From positions 907,992 through 971,991 of the forward strand of contig NIVC01000105.1 of the NCBI GenBank assembly GCA_002269645.1: DNA of 64,000 bases. The letters run 5' to 3'. The stretch's first letter is position 1; the number at the start of each line of letters is the position of its first letter. The stretch comes from Macrostomum lignano. Its lineage: Eukaryota. Positions 2,556 to 11,868 of this stretch are shown piece after piece. Both the position numbers and the translations under genes were made by a program. The notes beneath the pieces are model-generated. The model saw only the letters and a list, made by a program, of their open reading frames with translations, was not told where the DNA came from and did not search any database.

Positions 2556-3325
2556 TGTGACAGGCCTTTTGGCTCTGTCTTTCTAAACTTCTAACTATTA
2601 GTGTTTATTAAATATCCTACGAGCTGCCACCAAAGTTGTTACAGGCCTTTCACCTCTTACTTTATCAATTTTAATCCCACCGATTTGCCAACTACAGTTA
2701 TCCTGATTATACTTGCTTTTACTCCCTAACTATTTCTTAGAATTTCATTTAAATATTTCTGGGTAGCGTTCTTAGTAGCGTTTCTGGTAGCGTTCTTAGT
2801 AGCGTTTCTGGTAGCTTATGGCTTGCTTTCTGGTAGCGTTCTAGTAGCTTATATGGCCTGAGCGGTCTAGTACTGGTATATGTATTAGTGTATAGTCCTA
2901 ATCGGGCGTTCACCGAGACTAGAGGGTCACGGCGCCTCTCTTGGTATATCTCCAAGAATTAGTCCCAATTCCCTTCTCTTAGCAAATTTCTTAGAATCGT
3001 TTCACAGGTTTTGCAAATAAATAAGTCGCTATTTAGCTCAAAGACTTTGAAATGGTTTAGATTGAACTGCTTATTCTGTTCGCAATTATTTGCTCACGAG
3101 TAAAAGACAGTTAGAGTATATTTGTCGCAAAACCGCTCCTATATATAGTGATTTTCCCCACATACGATTAAAACAAAAAAATAATTCTCCAATTTATTTC
3201 GCGCATTAAAACAAACTATTATTTGGCGTTCGCGTAGATTCAGTTTCTAAGAAAGATTCGAATATACAGTTATTACATTGAAAGAACATTCGAGTATACT
3301 ATGATAAAGGCATAGCACTAGTACA
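2556..3325 (-). repeat. 3' LTR (770 bp)
   Basis: By eye, identical to the other LTR except for one extra A in an A-run. TATA-like TATATATA at 3140-3147 and minus-strand AATAAA at 2604-2609. Confidence 0.95.
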
Positions 3326-3327
3326 AC

Positions 3328-3338
3328 TTTCCTCCTCT
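3328..3338 (-). other. Polypurine tract (PPT)
   Basis: The minus strand reads AGAGGAGGAAA-GT immediately before the TGTAC start of the 3' LTR. Confidence 0.8.
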
Positions 3339-3611: not shown

Positions 3612-4487
3612 TCAGATAAACATGCAGGGCTCCGGGAGGTCGCGATAGTAGGGCCAGCCGACTTGAGCGAAAAACCATCGGTACTCTTCGTCGAGGACCG
3701 TCAGCGCTGGCGGCGGGTTGGCTCTTATAGCTCGCTGTAGGCGATAGGCGACGTCCTGGAGAACAGCGACAGCTTCCTGGTAACTGAATTGATCCCTCAG
3801 AAACTTCAGGTGTGTCCAAATTTGCGAGCATTGGGGGTAGCGCTGTCGGCTGTCGGATCGGTGGTACGCTACTTTCAGTGCATATTGCTCAATGTGGAAG
3901 CGTAGCTTTTCCACCTCTGCTCCGCGAGTCTCCACAAGTTCTCGGACGATGCGATGAAAATCTCTCTGCGAATTCGATTGCTGCTGGCTCGGCTGTAGTG
4001 CTGATGGCTGGCTAGACTGCTGCGCTGATTGCAGGCTCGGCTGCAGCGCTGACTGCTGCGCTGATTGCAGGCTCGGCTGCGACGCTGGCTGCTGAGCTGG
4101 CGGTGTCGCAGCTGTCGATTTCTTCTGCCGTGGTGCCGGGGTCTTTCTCGATGATGGGGCAGCTGGCGGTGACACCAACTGCTGCGTTCGGCTTGATGTC
4201 GACGATCCTGGCGTGGCCTTGACAACATAGGAGCGCACGGGCGCAGCTGCCTGTGCTGCCACCAGGGCGGCGCGCTTCTGCTCGGGGCCTTCGACCCTCA
4301 TTTGGCGGCAAGGCGATGAAGCTGGCGATGATGTTCTTGGCCGTTTGCTGGATACACCAGGCGCCTTTGGACGTGTTGCACATCGAAGCGGTGCCTCATT
4401 TTCATCGGTGTTGGGCGCTGGCTGGGGCTCCATATCGTCTGACAGATTGCCAATTAACTCGTCCAAGATATCAATAGAGTTGTTCAT
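3612..4487 (-). CDS. 291-aa accessory protein of the LTR element, unknown function
   Basis: Intact ATG (AAAATG context) to stop. Acidic amphipathic N-terminus (IDILDELIGNL), a KRPR NLS-like motif, an S/P/Q/A-rich linker and a roughly 115-aa predicted helical C-terminal domain. TATAAATA lies about 85 nt upstream. Visibly more GC-rich than the rest of the element. Confidence 0.75.
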   Translation of the reverse strand: MNNSIDILDELIGNLSDDMEPQPAPNTDENEAPLRCATRPKAPGVSSKRPRTSSPASSPCRQMRVEGPEQKRAALVAAQAAAPVRSYVVKATPGSSTSSRTQQLVSPPAAPSSRKTPAPRQKKSTAATPPAQQPASQPSLQSAQQSALQPSLQSAQQSSQPSALQPSQQQSNSQRDFHRIVRELVETRGAEVEKLRFHIEQYALKVAYHRSDSRQRYPQCSQIWTHLKFLRDQFSYQEAVAVLQDVAYRLQRAIRANPPPALTVLDEEYRWFFAQVGWPYYRDLPEPCMFI

Positions 4488-4570
4488 TTTGATTTCTCTG
4501 CGAATGGCTCTTAGAATAGAAAGGAAGCTAGCAGTGAGCTATGGGATCTGTGGGGCCTGCGGGGTGCTCG

Positions 4571-4578
4571 TATTTATA
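4571..4578 (-). promoter_or_regulatory. Candidate internal TATA box for the accessory ORF
   Basis: Minus strand reads cccgccagccTATAAATAcgag in a GC-rich patch upstream of the ATG at 4487. Confidence 0.5.
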
Positions 4579-4887
4579 GGCTGGCGGGCCGAAAAACTGG
4601 ACCTCTTCGAAGCACTCCCCTCGCGCGTGGGGCGGGGCATGTCAGATTTGACAGATTTGGCAACTAAATTTTTATGGATTTTCTATTTCTTTTTATAACT
4701 TTTTTATTTTTTGATAGATTTTCTTGAGTAAAGTATCAAATTAAAGATCGCATTTTGTAGATTAATATGGTATTTACAGATTCGCTCTATGTACAGCATG
4801 TCAAATTTTATAAGCAGATAAGTAATTCTAATACGGAATTTTAACTATTTAACACTGTTTCTTATGGGAAATTGCTTACGTCATGAT

Positions 4888-5367
4888 TTAAGGTGCTAAA
4901 TATTTCGCGTAGCGCCTTCGGGGCACAAATCCTGTCGCGCCTTCTCTTTCTCTCCTTCGCTGAGTCATCCTAAAGTTATACCTATTCTCTGGCTGAACTC
5001 GTTCCTCCTCTAACTCAAATGCTCCTTCTTCTTCTTCTGATGGCTCATCTGAGTCAGTCGCTCTCTCTGTATTCTCACTGTTCAATTCTTCATTTCCTTC
5101 GTTTTCACTCTGCGAATTCGGATCTGCGAATACTCTCCATTGAATTCTGTCTTCTTCGTCTGAGCTTTCCTCCTCTAAAATTTGAACTTCTGGAATTCTA
5201 ATTTCTTTTTGTCTATGGCAAATTCTTTTATTCGACTTCGGCGGTTCTTTCTTCTTAGTTGACACTGGTGCTGGTTTTAAATTATTATTAATTTCCTCTG
5301 GTAAATTAATTTCGGATTTCGGCACTGGAGTCAGATTATTACTGTTTTTCTTCGAACAATTTTGCAA
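4888..5367 (-). pseudogene. Acidic ORF, possibly a remnant of the pol/integrase C-terminal tail
   Basis: E/D-rich reading frame ending in a PENRYNFRMTQRRRE-type basic motif reminiscent of Gypsy pol tails. No ATG start and no catalytic motifs. Confidence 0.35.
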
Positions 5368-6154
5368 ATTCTCACAGCTTCTCTTCGAAATCTCATCTTC
5401 ATTTCATCTCATCTCAACTCAACAACTTCTCGACTCAATATCTCGACTCGACCCTGACCTCTCGAAAGCTTCTCTGCTGAACTCATGCCAGCTACAGCTC
5501 TACTGTCACGGGTCCTACAACTCTTAACAAATTCTCAAATCTCGAATCCCCTTCCGCTATCTCAGTTTGGCCTCGTCAGTAGAATCATAGAAATTCTGTA
5601 TTAATCTGCTCTTTAGGCCTTACTGCCCTTCCTTTCCTGCATGGCCTGACTCTCTGAACCTTTTTTGGCTCTTCTGAAAGCGTCATCGGCCTCTTCTTTC
5701 TGCCTTTGGCCAATCCGCAATTGGTCAGCATGCGTAGCTGTCCGCGCGTCATGCCAATCTCTGCAATCCAATCTTTTCGACAATTCTCTTCGCACAATTC
5801 TGCACAATTCTCTCAGCATCAACTTCTCGTCAACTTCTCTGAGTAAAATAATCTTCCTTCAATGTTTTCAGTCCGAAATTGCAGTTCCCTGGCTTTCCTA
5901 AATAAGTTTCTTAGTAAAACGGCCCTTTTAAGGTCAAACGGCCCTTTTAAGGGTTACCTCCTAAATTTTTAGCTATTTAACGAACTTTAGACGGCTTACT
6001 TGGTCAGTACATTGCAGTATGCAGACGAAATACTTCTTAAACAAATATTTTTTTGGGTTTTCTGAATTTTTTTATTCGTTTTTATATTTTTTTTGCATAT
6101 TTGAAACATATTTACAAATAGCTTTCAGATTCGCGCTCCTGTGTACGAGTCTTC

Positions 6155-6733
6155 TTAGGGTGGCTTCTGCTGGGCGTGCCGGTTGAAGTTGATTCGGCAC
6201 TGGTGTCCTGCCTGAGGCCTAATGGGTCCTGGCTGGTTGCAGAAGAAGCAGTGACCAGGTTTCGGCTCTGGCCTGATTCCACTGAATCTGTTCAGGCGGC
6301 GAGGTCTTGGTTCTGACTGATGCTGCTGCCCTGTCTTTGGCTCTAGGCTTATGTTCGTTAGCACAATTGACAGAGTCATTAGACACTCTACTAATGCGTC
6401 AATCCCTTCTTTCTTGTTCTGCTGCTTCGGCTCAAATTCTTCGATGATCCTTCGCCTAATCTCCTGGTACTGACTCTGCTCTTTTCTGTGACTGATTCGG
6501 CGTTTCAGTCCCTCTGGGATGTTTAGATTAGCAAAGAGAGCTTCCTTCTGTTTCTCGACTGTAATCCCTTGGATTCTGCACTGTTGCTCAAACGTGTTCA
6601 TCCACTGCCTAATGTTCTGACCAGGCGTGAACTTTTCTACTTGCACTTCAGCTTCTTTCGATCCTAACTTGAGATGTTTCCGCAGTTCCTCTGCCAGCAT
6701 GGCGATGGCATCATTAGCCTGATTCTGATTCAT
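6155..6733 (-). CDS. Short Gag-like protein (192 aa)
   Basis: First ORF after the PBS. KFTPGQNIRQWMNTFEQQC resembles the Ty3/Gypsy capsid N-terminal motif. Degenerate zinc knuckle CFFCNQPGPIRPQAGHQC. Confidence 0.75.
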   Translation of the reverse strand: MNQNQANDAIAMLAEELRKHLKLGSKEAEVQVEKFTPGQNIRQWMNTFEQQCRIQGITVEKQKEALFANLNIPEGLKRRISHRKEQSQYQEIRRRIIEEFEPKQQNKKEGIDALVECLMTLSIVLTNISLEPKTGQQHQSEPRPRRLNRFSGIRPEPKPGHCFFCNQPGPIRPQAGHQCRINFNRHAQQKPP

Positions 6734-6813: not shown

Positions 6814-6832
6814 AATCCCACCGCTGCCACCA
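6814..6832 (-). other. Primer-binding site complementary to the tRNA-Leu 3' end
   Basis: Plus strand AATCCCACCGCTGCCACCA equals the 3' end (including CCA) of metazoan tRNA-Leu(AAG/TAG). It lies 2 nt from the LTR end. Confidence 0.9.
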
Positions 6833-6834
6833 GC

Positions 6835-8717
6835 TGTGACAGGCCTTTTGGCTCTGTCTTTCTAAACTTCTAACTATTAGTGTTTATTAAATATCCTACG
6901 AGCTGCCACCAAAGTTGTTACAGGCCTTTCACCTCTTACTTTATCAATTTTAATCCCACCGATTTGCCAACTACAGTTATCCTGATTATACTTGCTTTTA
7001 CTCCCTAACTATTTCTTAGAATTTCATTTAAATATTTCTGGGTAGCGTTCTTAGTAGCGTTTCTGGTAGCGTTCTTAGTAGCGTTTCTGGTAGCTTATGG
7101 CTTGCTTTCTGGTAGCGTTCTAGTAGCTTATATGGCCTGAGCGGTCTAGTACTGGTATATGTATTAGTGTATAGTCCTAATCGGGCGTTCACCGAGACTA
7201 GAGGGTCACGGCGCCTCTCTTGGTATATCTCCAAGAATTAGTCCCAATTCCCTTCTCTTAGCAAATTTCTTAGAATCGTTTCACAGGTTTTGCAAATAAA
7301 TAAGTCGCTATTTAGCTCAAAGACTTTGAAATGGTTTAGATTGAACTGCTTATTCTGTTCGCAATTATTTGCTCACGAGTAAAAGACAGTTAGAGTATAT
7401 TTGTCGCAAAACCGCTCCTATATATAGTGATTTTCCCCACATACGATTAAAAACAAAAAAATAATTCTCCAATTTATTTCGCGCATTAAAACAAACTATT
7501 ATTTGGCGTTCGCGTAGATTCAGTTTCTAAGAAAGATTCGAATATACAGTTATTACATTGAAAGAACATTCGAGTATACTATGATAAAGGCCAGTGTTGG
7601 GCAAGTTACTTAAAAAAAGTAACTTGCGTTACTGTAACTTAAGTTACCAATTTTTAAAAAGTAACTTACGTTAGCCTAGTAACTTTAGACAAAAACCTGG
7701 TAACTTTTAAGTTACTGTCCGTTACTCACTTCCGTTACCCATGTTATTAACAAAATTTTCTGCTTTTTTCACATTGCACATTTTTTCACATTGTTGTTAC
7801 CGAAATTTGCCATTGGGCATTGGGATTAACCGATTAACAAACAGAGACAGGAATTGGCGACACGATGTGAGGCAAATAGAAGGACCAATGGGCAATGGCA
7901 ATCAATAATTAAAATTATAAATGATAAAATAAACGAATATCAATAATTCAATAGAGTAAAATAAATAGAACTGTATAAAATGGTGTAGTGTACTGCAGTG
8001 CCAGTGGAGGGACTTGTGGAGGCTACAGATGAATTTCTTTCTTTGGTTGTTTGTTTGAATCAAACTTGAAAATTTTTAGTAACGAAAATGGGCCTTTTCA
8101 TATAGCTAGTTCTGGTTCCAGAATCAGAACCAATTTGTGAAGTATAACTTTTTGTCTCCATAACTAGAGGGAGATACGTGCTATAAAGTTTTTATTATTG
8201 AATGAAAATCGCTAAGAAGAAAGTGAAAAATTGTGCTATGTGAGGTTGTTAAGGCAGTCAAACATTCAACAGAATTAAATAGTTATACTGCTGTTTTTCT
8301 TGGAAGATCCGAACCGATTCTGATTCTGGAATTGGTAATATGAAAAGCCTCAATGAAAGGCGAAAATATTTTACCAATATTAACAAAGTAATACTTGTTT
8401 CAAGTATTTCTTCATTAATTAAACGCAATACCATATGATACTATTCACTTAATTTTGAATTTATGAATGAAAAATGCAAAAACATGTGACAACCGGCGTA
8501 CTAGCTAAGCATTTCAGTTTTTAATTTAAATATTGCGATTGTTGCAAAGTAACTGTAACGGACTTCCGAAATTTGAGTAACTTACCGTTACTCCGTTACT
8601 AAAATAAAAAAGTAACTTGCGTAAGGAACGCTTTACGAAAAAGTAACTTGCGTTACCATTTGCAAGTTACTCGGTAACGGAAGTGCCCAACACTGATAAA
8701 GGCATAGCACTAGTACA
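6835..8717 (-). repeat. 5' LTR, interrupted by a DNA transposon
   Basis: Matches 2556-3325 up to 7591, resumes at 8704 and ends in ...gtaca at 8717. Confidence 0.93.
7592..8695. mobile_element. Non-autonomous hAT-type DNA transposon (1104 bp)
   Basis: 12-bp perfect TIR CAGTGTTGGGCA / TGCCCAACACTG. 8-bp TSD ATAAAGGC at 7584-7591 and 8696-8703. Clusters of GTAAC/GTTAC subterminal motifs at both ends; no transposase ORF. Confidence 0.92.
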
Positions 8718-10002
8718 GTTTATCATATTCATTATTCTATAATTTATACTAGGCCTAGCTAGCTAGGTAGTTTGGCTAGGTTGGCTACAGAGTAAAGCAG
8801 TTATGATGATATAATAGCTAGGCCAACTTTGACCAATTGTTTAAAGTTTACTAGAACTAGAATAAAGAGATTTCTTTCTAGGCCTTTTAAGAAAATTTAT
8901 CTAATCCAAAATGCTAATTGATAGGCCCTAGCCATAGTTTAGAAGGCAATATATTTGCTAGTATTTCCTAGCATATAACAAGGATCTTACCATTTTTAGC
9001 ATACATCAATGTATAATGTATAATATCCTAGCGTACATGACACAATAGAATAGATACTGAGATACATTGTGTCAAATAATAATTTTTTGTATATGGTGTA
9101 CAAGCATACAAACAAGGTCTCATCATTTTTTCTGGTATTGAACCTAGCATATACTAATATACAATCTAAACTATGGGCTAATAACTAATGACAATATGGT
9201 ATAATTCTTAAAAATTAACAATATTTACATTTATTATTTTGCTTTTCTAAGCCATTCAGCAACTCCAATATATTGCGAAACATTATTAGGCTTCAAGGTA
9301 TCTTCAGTGCTTTTTGCTCTTTTCTGGATCTTATTTCATTACAAGTTTCCAAATAATTTTTTTATGTTTTTATTATTTATATGGCCTTCCTCTTATTTTT
9401 TAGGTAGTTGTCTTCCATTTTCTTATCAATCTCCTTCTCTATGATCATCTTATGCCTATGTCAGTGTATATTATTGTTCTTGATGTTTGCAATTGGCTCC
9501 AAGAAAAGAGACTCCAAAAGTTGTGTTCAATAATTATATACTTGTAAATTAATATTCAATAGCATAGCCAAGCAATATAATATTGTATTTAATAACGTTT
9601 GCTATTAGTATTGGTGAAATAGAGCATTAGATAATTTTGTATTTTAGGTTGTTTAAATTTGAGCACTTTAATGTTTAAGATATAGAAAATTGACATTTAT
9701 GTCTAAAATGACTATTGCTAACAATGTGAAATTGATTTAAAAAAGTATTTTATTAGAACTCATTTCCTTTCTAACTTTAATTCAGTAATAAATTTATAAT
9801 ATAAAAATTTGCTTATTATTTGTATCCTAATTTTATTTGGTTGTTTGTACAAATATTATTTGGGTAAGCTTATATAATTCTTAGTAATCTATTGTTAGAG
9901 AATCTTGATTTGTATGAGAATTATTCATTAATTGCATTTCAGCTTTGAAACTGCGTATATAAGAGGTTGTCAAGATTTCTTATCTAATTTCTTGTCTTTT
10001 AG

Positions 10003-11868
10003 GAGTAAAAAGAAACAGCAAATTGCATTGAGCATGATGCAGAAGTTAATGAGAGCCTGCATCTCAAAGAATTTGCCGCCAGGCAATACTGGCAATGCGG
10101 ACTTGCAATCCAACAACAATAACAACAACTGCAGTCACTATGGTAATAACGGTGCCAAGCCGGGGTCCTCTTGCCGGCCTCAAGAACAGCCTGATGCAGA
10201 GGCCAGCTCTCCAGTTCAAACGCGTCGCAAGCATCAGCGCTGGCATCATAAAAGTTTGACTCTTAGTTTGATTCGGTCGCCCTGGAGACGCAGCAATGCG
10301 GATAACAATAACAAAGACTCGAAGAAGCAGGAACTGCAGTGCAACAGTAGCCAATCTGTGGCAGGCGACAGCAGCAGCTTCAGCCAATCATTGACAACTC
10401 GATCAGTCACTATGGACCATTTCCCTAATCCTGTGGCGCCATCTGCCACGCAAGAGTCTGTCACGCCGACTTCTCCGGCATTGCCTTGTCAGCCTCTAGC
10501 TGAGCAAGATGCCCCAGTAGTGGAATCTACAGTTAGCAGCCGTGGTGGCAGCTACCGGGATTATAAATCAACTAGGAACAGTTATATTAGCGAGCCAAGA
10601 CAGCTGGGCAGCAGCTTCAATCCGGATAATTATCGCCGGCCAAACAACTTGCCATTGTTGAAGATGCATCAGCTGCAACTGTCGCAGCAGGCTGGTCGGA
10701 GTCGGGCAGTGCCCGCTGCAGCTGCTAGCAGGTGCGTGTTGTACTACTCGCTAGACAACGTTCGCATCAGTAGTATAGTTAGGATGTTTTAGTTTTTTAT
10801 TAAAATAAGTTAAATATGAATAAATGTTATATGGTTGTTTCAGTGTGTCAAAGGGAATTCCTCCCCTGTGTCGAAGGGAATTCCTTCTGTATCTAAGGGG
10901 ATTCCGCCTCTGTATATAAAGTATTTCCTTCTGTCTATATAAAGGAATTCCTCCTTGGCATATAAGGGAATTCCTCCCCTGTATATAAGATAATTCCTCC
11001 ATTTTTATAAGGGAATTCCTTTCCTATTATAAAGGAATTCCTCTCCTCTTTATAAGGGAATTCCTCCCCTGTATATAAGGAAATTACTCCCCTGTTTGAA
11101 GAATTTTCGCGTTGTCAATGGGAATTCTCCTGTATTTATAAAAATTATCCGTTTTGAATGGATTTCCTGGCTCGATCTCGTTTCATTTAGAAAAATCTTC
11201 CCATGCCAATTTGGCGCTAAGTATTCTTTGTTTGACTTTCACCAACCCCCCCCCCTTTCCGCAGCAGCAGTTGCAGTCCCACCGCCCCAGCCGCAGCAGC
11301 GCCGTCCAACTCGTCATTGCGCCGGCGTCGCTACGAATCCGGCGGCAGCGTCAGCGTCAACTCGGACGACCTGATGCTCGACACCGACGTTGGCAACCTG
11401 CTGGACGAAGAGGACCTGCTGTCCGAGCTGGGCACCCCCGCCGCCGAGGGTCCTCCCAGCGCCTTCCCTCCCGCAGCCGGTGCGGTCAGGACCAGCGGCA
11501 GTTTTCGTCGGACGGCGTCGCTCAGGCAGCGGCGCCAAGCGCTGCTGTCGTCTACGGCAATGTCGCACTCGATGACCTCGGCAACGCAGCAACGGCCAAG
11601 GTCGATATCGTCGCCGCCGCCGCCAGCTGATGACGCTGTGCTGGTGGGCGGGTCGGATCTGCGGCAGCTGGCTCAGGAGGCGGCGGCGATGAGGCTCGCG
11701 CTGCTGAGGCTGCGCCGCCAGCTCATGAACGACGAGCCCGTGTCGGATGCCGCCGGCTCGGGGGTGTGCGCTGCCTGCGGCCTGGACGCCAAGCGAGTTC
11801 GTCTGCTCGAGACTCGAGTAGCTGAGCTGCAAGCTGAGGCTGACCGACTGCGGACTGCGGCGGAGTAG
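10003..11868 (+). CDS. Last two coding exons of a serine-rich coiled-coil protein, CCSER1/2 (FAM190)-like
   Basis: Exon 10003-10731 (tttttag acceptor, cag|gtgcgt donor, phase 2) joins in frame to exon 11265-11868 (ctttccgcag acceptor, TAG stop). Motifs SDDLMLD and LRQLAQEAAAMRLALLRLRRQL recall the DDLMLD and coiled-coil motifs of CCSER proteins. The 5' exons were not identified. Confidence 0.6.
10847..11135. repeat. Degenerate ~24-bp intronic tandem repeat
   Basis: Repeated aagggaattcctcccctgtatat variants inside intron 10732-11264. Confidence 0.75.

Follow-up and report, generated by a model that had tools for sequence, protein, structure and literature searches.

A stretch of 64,000 nucleotides of the Macrostomum lignano genome (the window) contains an LTR retrotransposon with an intact reading frame in the env position, just upstream of the polypurine tract. 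What kind of protein does this frame, ORF3, encode, and what could it do for the element that carries it? An earlier note on this DNA had proposed a nuclear transactivator or anti-silencing factor, carried by an enzyme-less element that could supply it to its autonomous partner. The role of donor had to be dropped: full gag-pol copies elsewhere in the genome, L042 and L038 among them, themselves encode a protein identical to ORF3 of the window.

The element and its third gene

The element lies on the minus strand, from position 8717 to 2556, and has the features of a Ty3/Gypsy LTR retrotransposon: LTRs, primer-binding site (PBS), polypurine tract (PPT) and a short target-site duplication.

2552 to 2555 (second copy 8718 to 8721): target-site duplication, GTTT
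2556 to 3325, minus strand: 3′ LTR (TG...CA)
3326 to 3338, minus strand: PPT
3612 to 4487, minus strand (the sense strand of the element): ORF3, accessory gene, 291 aa, intact
3615 to 3971, minus strand: C-terminal domain (CTD) of ORF3, aa 173-291, five helices
4015 to 4099, minus strand: 36-bp repeat within the S/P/Q linker of ORF3
4176 to 4397, minus strand: conserved short motifs of ORF3, aa 31-104
4428 to 4487, minus strand: acidic amphipathic N-terminal helix of ORF3
4572 to 4578, minus strand: TATA box (TATAAAT) of the internal promoter
4593 to 4613, minus strand: 21-nt H1-type box, identical to the promoter box of a host stem-loop histone H1 gene
4629 to 4638, minus strand: GC box, upstream of the H1-type box
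4889 to 5343, minus strand: 3′ tail of pol, also in autonomous copies
6155 to 6733, minus strand: mini-Gag, 192 aa, intact, of the satellite lineage
6814 to 6832, minus strand: PBS, complementary to host tRNA-Leu
6835 to 8717, minus strand: 5′ LTR, its U3 split by a 1.1-kb insert
7592 to 8695, within U3 of the 5′ LTR: the 1.1-kb insert, with terminal inverted repeats and an 8-bp duplication

The LTRs of the window element are 99.87% identical (757 nt compared), thus its insertion is very recent. ORF3 ends about 270 nt upstream of the PPT, beyond which lies the 3′ LTR. The sense-strand frame was as the earlier note had described it: intact, preceded by a TATA box 85 nt from the ATG, and with a GC content of 0.579 richer than its surroundings (0.30 downstream, 0.26 in the spacer that precedes the promoter). 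The term enzyme-less was also apt, the window element having neither RT nor integrase. Over the 805 nt preceding the ORF3 frame the window element and the autonomous copies are 97.6% identical.

Several details of the LTRs were seen in passing. The inverted repeats of the 1.1-kb insert, which we take to be hAT-like, begin CAGTGTTGGGCA, and its insertion point is 14 nt inside the 5′ LTR. R repeats are found at 2756-2848 and 7035-7127 of the window, and type-specific tandem repeats also occur in R of L084, L109 and L122. A hairpin-like word, CCGCTC, recurs in R regions and could pair with the PBS. The 3′ ends of LTRs (for example L052, L055, window 2556-2680) consist of several tandem U5+PBS-like units, which look like growth by repeated capture of the primer-site region. 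In U3 of most types TTTTGTTTTA words, presumably forkhead-like, are repeated upstream of the LTR TATA (for example window 3150-3325, L080).

The ORF3 family and its protein

A Ty3/Gypsy clade of M. lignano, large and young, carries ORF3 as its third gene. A DNA search gave 40 scored matches out of 45 candidates, and each of the CTD searches gave at least 150 scored matches, with identity down to 26-27%. All of the 150 scored CTD matches lie in the M. lignano genome, and as they extend down to 27% identity, ORF3 must be more than a chance reading frame. We picked 120 ten-kb loci for diversity and open frames; after removal of two duplicates, 118 remained, comprising 63 loci with an RT of the clade, 27 satellites, and 28 fragments or loci without context. 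In this sample, which favours open frames, ORF3 is open for at least 270 aa through the whole CTD in 45 of the 63 RT loci and 22 of the 27 satellites. LTR pairs are at least 99% identical in 59 of 77 cases. The autonomous partner, L042, encodes a Gag with a zinc knuckle and a Pol in the Gypsy order protease-RT-RNase H-integrase. The RT of the clade is 45% identical to that of the published M. lignano family id38 (PMC12801592, accessible part).

The earlier note had regarded disruption of the frame in most copies as an argument against a functional gene. Among the 30 closest copies 14 are intact and 16 are broken by frameshifts (L022, with two offsetting shifts, was counted as broken). Most of the breaks fall in base runs or dinucleotide repeats. 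Six of the 16 broken copies share one single-base loss in a run of C; as one of the six shares its flank with an intact copy, an assembly error is likely. One two-base loss was found both in an autonomous copy and in a satellite copy whose flanks differ; here a genuine broken allele may have been transmitted.

The architecture proposed earlier (acidic start, KRPR motif, 36-bp duplication, helical C-terminal domain) was found in all its parts. The first 30 residues carry a net charge of -7 to -11 in 25 of 25 types. Residues 31-104 contain the motifs EAPLRxxTRP, KRPR (NLS-like), a KRAAL..QA helix, VRSYVVK and RTQQL. The linker is rich in P, Q and S and disordered, and the copy number of its 36-bp repeat differs among ORF3 copies. 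The CTD was modelled by AlphaFold2 as five helices (mean pLDDT 86.6, pTM 0.83); the remainder of the protein is predicted to be disordered, save two low-confidence helices. The CTD is mildly basic (net +1 to +9), with an invariant D, P and W. A transmembrane segment or signal-like hydrophobic stretch was not detected in 25 types, the window's included (highest 19-aa Kyte-Doolittle mean 1.11 or less), which, together with the acidic N-terminus, agrees with the previous statement that ORF3 is not Env. No fusogen was among the fold matches listed (PDB, BFVD, VIA) for the small, all-helical CTD model.

The CTD, which had been called unrecognised, had no match in Pfam, PDB or the representative library, and it offers a domain without known relative. 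Foldseek searches of PDB and BFVD with the CTD model found nothing down to the E-value limit of 0.001, and the fold searches revealed no resemblance to a known DNA-binding fold. The best VIA match, to B12-cap-like bundles (Z 7.8, rmsd 2.7, 83 aligned residues), was rejected as lying in the range of common helical arrangements. Comparison of the CTD profile with the element's own Gag gave no likeness (probability 0.2%). Word-indexed searches outside the genome found nothing, a weak result because they also missed known members of the family. A full HMMER scan, queried with one sequence and no profile, gave five matches: three M. lignano hypothetical proteins, the Logan protein P0002 and a fungal TPR protein. 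The last was rejected as a relative (12.7 bits on the family profile), as was L154, a bacterial metagenome match that fails the same profile. The protein Atlas search gave no usable match. The only relatives found outside M. lignano records are the unnamed Logan proteins P0002 and P0006, at most 48% identical to any type. The Rfam search yielded no match at gathering level.

The three M. lignano clusters matched correspond to two element ORF3s and a solo CTD gene (see below); ORF3 of locus L060 encodes exactly the sequence of a hypothetical M. lignano protein at NCBI. According to the accessible part of PMC5730564 the Mlig annotation derives from assembled transcripts, thus the three clusters point indirectly to transcription, of types that do not include the window's. 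Contigs of four runs, guessed to be RNA, covered ORF3 and contained no gag-to-ORF3 joint. We found no account of ORF3 in the available portions of PMC12801592, PMC10309623, PMC13524379, PMC2582038, PMC12823420, PMC5730564, PMC4402516 and PMC12789967, and no described ORF3 in the literature searched, whose scope did not extend to the earlier LTR classification of M. lignano cited in PMC12801592. ORF3 gene identifiers were likewise not mentioned in the full texts and supplements searched, two large supplements being searched by term only.

Promoter, cassette and satellite lineage

ORF3 appears to have a true internal promoter, as the earlier note had supposed from the TATA box: a predicted promoter is conserved across types. 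The 21-nt box of the window is identical to the stem-loop H1 promoter at 21 of 21 positions, whereas 500 shuffles reach 13 at most. The exact box has 41 matches in 764 Mb, namely 37 ORF3 promoters (assigned by coordinate against the ORF3 DNA and CTD search matches) and 4 H1 gene copies. Other ORF3 types match the promoter box variant of another H1 gene at 30 of 30 nt. A box ending GGTCCAGTTTT directly above the TATA, or a variant, is present in 18 of 49 types and in one half of the tree only; in the remaining half some types have a TATA box, and the conserved words are different ones. A degenerate form of the box had 445 genome matches against 0 for the reversed control. Thirteen of these stretches were sampled: ten were minisatellite arrays with differing units, two were histone H1 promoter and one was unexplained. 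Among 15 linker-histone loci the box was found in all 12 that belong to the four canonical H1 types and was absent from the three divergent ones; it was absent from all 12 H4 loci.

From these matches we infer that the ORF3 promoter mimics a host H1 element or has captured one, and that the H1 variant was switched in the window's lineage. ORF3 is likely switched on together with the host linker-histone genes, and its promoter would be a case of histone H1 promoter mimicry that is visible in sequence. In a reverse reading, the ORF3 protein itself may bind the H1-type box. Histone boxes of the GGTCC type bind HINFP (the Hinfp-H1 link), and H1 contributes to transposon silencing. A splice-acceptor-like stretch about 25 nt upstream of the ATG is not conserved across types, thus env-style splicing of ORF3 is unlikely. 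Many unrelated minisatellites, with periods of 29-50 nt, are built on the H1 promoter box (L170-L176, L178-L180; for example G000:C371:230604-231032).

The same type of promoter precedes a CTD-only reading frame of 118-119 aa at three contigs (G000:C846, C3012 and C2203). This solo gene has the H1-type box and TATA as in the ORF3 promoter, and it lacks the acidic helix, the linker and the last motif. Its flanks are syntenic (94-98%), and no LTR, PBS, PPT, gag or pol was found within 10-17 kb around it. It is 41-42% identical to the nearest element, intact in 3 of 3 syntenic copies, and has NCBI gene models. The copies differ by 4 silent and 2 conservative codon changes (p ~0.03, resting on six changes). 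The solo gene was likely domesticated by the host at a fixed locus and is a candidate host counter-gene. L077 and its four duplicates were also considered as a solo gene and rejected as a truncated element.

By its substitution pattern ORF3 is under strong purifying selection: between the CTD and a relative 80% identical in protein, pS is 0.78 and pN 0.11 (the earlier note had named a dN/dS near 1 as adverse). RT, integrase and, where present, gag of L032, L051 and L053 are 97.5-99.3% identical to L042 in DNA, whereas their CTDs are 80%, 64% and 53% identical to that of L042 in protein, with saturated silent sites (pS 0.73-0.80, pN 0.11-0.31). L068 shows a like pattern against L070 and L072, with near-identical backbone and diverged CTD. 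In sliding windows over four backbone groups, identity is mostly 90-100% until the promoter, where it drops to about 45-60% and stays low across ORF3 and on into the LTR; the diverged block spans promoter, ORF3 and U3/R. The 119 CTDs fall into 49 types (90% identity) and the 62 RTs into 10 (93%). In a tree of 26 CTDs, one for each RT/CTD pair out of 55, types group by backbone (9 changes against a shuffled mean of 15.2; none of 200 shuffles was as low).

We infer that old ORF3/LTR alleles are maintained inside recombining element populations, a diversity that, in terms of population genetics, would be the mark of balanced alleles, here of a transposon gene. The coupling between CTD and LTR is loose: identical CTDs occur with U3s only 65-79% alike, one LTR is common to CTDs 77-80% alike, and R repeats are common to CTD types 50-100% alike. 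Reverse transcription couples ORF3 to U3 in any case. L036 and L047 are natural chimeras, with the N-terminus from one ORF3 type and the CTD from another.

The window element is a member of an old satellite lineage, in which a distinct mini-Gag is conserved; it is not a simple deletion derivative, since this separate lineage has a mini-Gag of its own under selection. This protein consists of a capsid-N-like part and a GHCFFC...GHxC motif, and its residues 1-101 are 48% identical to the autonomous Gag. In the lineage mini-Gag is 191-197 aa long and 64-78% alike among types (pS 0.52-0.89, pN 0.12-0.22), and 36 full-length stop-free mini-Gags were among the matches listed. The satellites (27 loci) bear 11 CTD types, several of which also occur in autonomous elements. 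Plant TR-GAG are non-autonomous LTR elements that retain a Gag-type gene. The satellites are likewise LTR elements that conserve a Gag gene but lack the Pol enzymes, in agreement with the definition of TR-GAG; they differ in that they belong to an animal lineage, that their Gag is shortened and evolves separately, and that they carry an ORF3 cassette. At G000:C1833:113466-123196 three identical mini-Gags about 4.6 kb apart form a tandem array of satellite elements. Two words like the host histone stem-loop lie antisense to the element in the satellite-only spacer (window 5921-5954, plus strand); 8 of 12 satellites have such words, whereas none of 5 autonomous elements does.

Possible roles of ORF3

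The reading that we prefer, at a probability of roughly 0.45, is that ORF3 is a nuclear activator or anti-silencer that would switch on the element encoding it, much as foamy-virus Tas does. It fits best because of the layout of the protein, the position of the gene, the predicted LTR-independent promoter and the retention of ORF3 by satellites. A host factor driving H1 genes would fire the internal promoter, probably in dividing cells, while the LTR is still quiet. The basic motifs would take ORF3 into the nucleus, the CTD would dock on the element, whether on its DNA, its chromatin or the nascent RNA, and LTR transcription would rise once co-activators are recruited by the acidic helix. In the long term, selection in an arms race would preserve many old ORF3/LTR cassettes, with gag-pol being made uniform by recombination. 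The host's CTD-only copy, which has no acidic helix, would work as a dominant-negative brake.

An acidic helix, P/Q/S-rich disorder, KRP/KRA motifs and a folded basic CTD suit such an activator, as does a box whose exact matches are confined to ORF3 and H1. Open frames in satellites fit a self-serving product, and both the extent of the diverged block and the solo gene, intact with its promoter box and free of element parts, point the same way. On the other side, no binding site was found, and k-mer sharing between the internal promoter and the own LTR was not above that of non-self pairs. The coupling between CTD types and LTR types is not strict, no known DNA-binding fold resembles the CTD, the H1-type box occurs in only 18 of the 49 types, within one half of the tree, and the selection signal of the solo gene comes from six codon changes. 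Satellites could also hold ORF3 simply by re-acquiring it often, U3 and ORF3 moving together. For foamy-virus Tas (Bel1), an internal promoter feeding a transactivator is the precedent, and the 3′ accessory gene lies just before the 3′ LTR as here (PMC12789967, accessible part). ORF3, like Tas, is likely nuclear; it has, however, no sequence or fold link to it, its carrier is a Gypsy retrotransposon without env, and its promoter box is common to host H1 genes.

A more elaborate version of the self-activator, which we regard as doubtful, is a circuit of three parties. The retrotransposon would have copied the H1 box and switched between two H1 variants, so that an activator of new fold fires whenever the cell makes H1. 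This activator would be kept as balanced, MHC-like ancient alleles on a recombining backbone, on which a mini-Gag satellite would ride as well. The binding domain of the activator, still behind the same promoter, would have been domesticated by the host to serve as a dominant-negative restriction factor.

The N-terminal helix that would serve the activator also suits a class-1 export-signal pattern, found in the first 30 residues of 19 of 30 ORF3 types against a background of 20-25% (8 of 32 Gag windows, 29 of 149 Pol windows). ORF3 could then be an adaptor similar to Rev or CERV, which binds element RNA (3′ UTR, U3 or R) and exports or stabilises the genomic RNA, the helix serving as export signal or TREX-binding motif. 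The middle region is basic (net +5 to +20), a word like I/V-x-x-RLG is present in 11 of 30 types, and R belongs to the diverged cassette. The N-terminus may also resemble the UAP56-binding motif of ALYREF. The pattern is, however, open to any amphipathic helix, and the window's own helix matches class 3 only. None of 26 N-termini matched Pfam export-motif families at E up to 10, and with an internal promoter there is no splicing problem for a Rev-type protein to solve. We consider this adaptor unlikely. CERV of C. elegans Cer1 provides the precedent in an LTR retrotransposon, being also a novel accessory protein with a candidate export signal; its mRNA is spliced and the protein has three domains that fold, whereas ORF3 has one domain and its own predicted promoter (PMC10309623, accessible part).

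To much the same degree it seems improbable that ORF3 is a general antagonist of host silencing, timed to H1 expression and without preference for its own element, whose target would be a host protein such as H1, a chaperone of H1 or a component of the piRNA machinery. The promoter box common to H1 genes, the loose CTD-LTR coupling and the deep allelic diversity, consistent with a host arms race, would be expected of it; yet satellites should shed a public good, which most of them retain, and the change between types is purifying, not adaptive. VANC are anti-silencing proteins of Arabidopsis VANDAL transposons, fast-diversifying under purifying selection. ORF3 shares with them these properties and the status of a transposon accessory gene. 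VANC, however, belong to plant DNA transposons, no homology to ORF3 was found, and the k-mer test revealed no co-varying target motif for ORF3.

Many ancient types on near-identical backbones are also the pattern of frequency-dependent selection, and a CTD-only copy kept by the host resembles captured restriction genes, as if ORF3 were an interference or addiction factor by which residents exclude or poison other cassette types and rare types gain. We hold this to be very unlikely, since the cassette has no conserved second (antidote) frame and the layout is regulator-like, not toxin-like. The possibility that ORF3 is what remains of an Env or Gag, a fragment captured from a host gene or a sequence under no selection, suggested by its env position and by the frameshifts in close copies, is already largely refuted by the lack of a hydrophobic segment, of likeness to Gag and of any Pfam, PDB or fold match, by a pN far below pS, and by the location of most breaks in base runs or dinucleotide repeats.

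Accessory regulators with their own promoter mark complex retroviruses, and few are known in LTR retrotransposons. Tor3b/4b of Oikopleura are also Gypsy-like with a third gene under an internal promoter, but that gene encodes a membrane glycoprotein, Env (PMC4402516, accessible part). The Gmr1/Osvaldo families described in M. lignano share genome and superfamily with the ORF3 clade; id38, however, lacks ORF3 in 3 of 3 copies, and in the main text of PMC12801592, as far as available to a term search, the words 'ORF', 'accessory' and 'non-autonomous' are absent. New here are the H1 box in the promoter, the diversity of ORF3/LTR cassettes, the mini-Gag satellite lineage and the solo CTD gene. RNAi and transgenesis are available in M. 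lignano, so that the timing of a transposon to stem cells and its escape from silencing are directly testable there.

Outside the element, the window contains on its plus strand ORFs of 252 and 164 aa (10034-10792 and 11374-11868), of which the former had no Pfam match; both are probably host-gene exons. Positions 12000-60000 are mostly filled by dense, varied minisatellite arrays.
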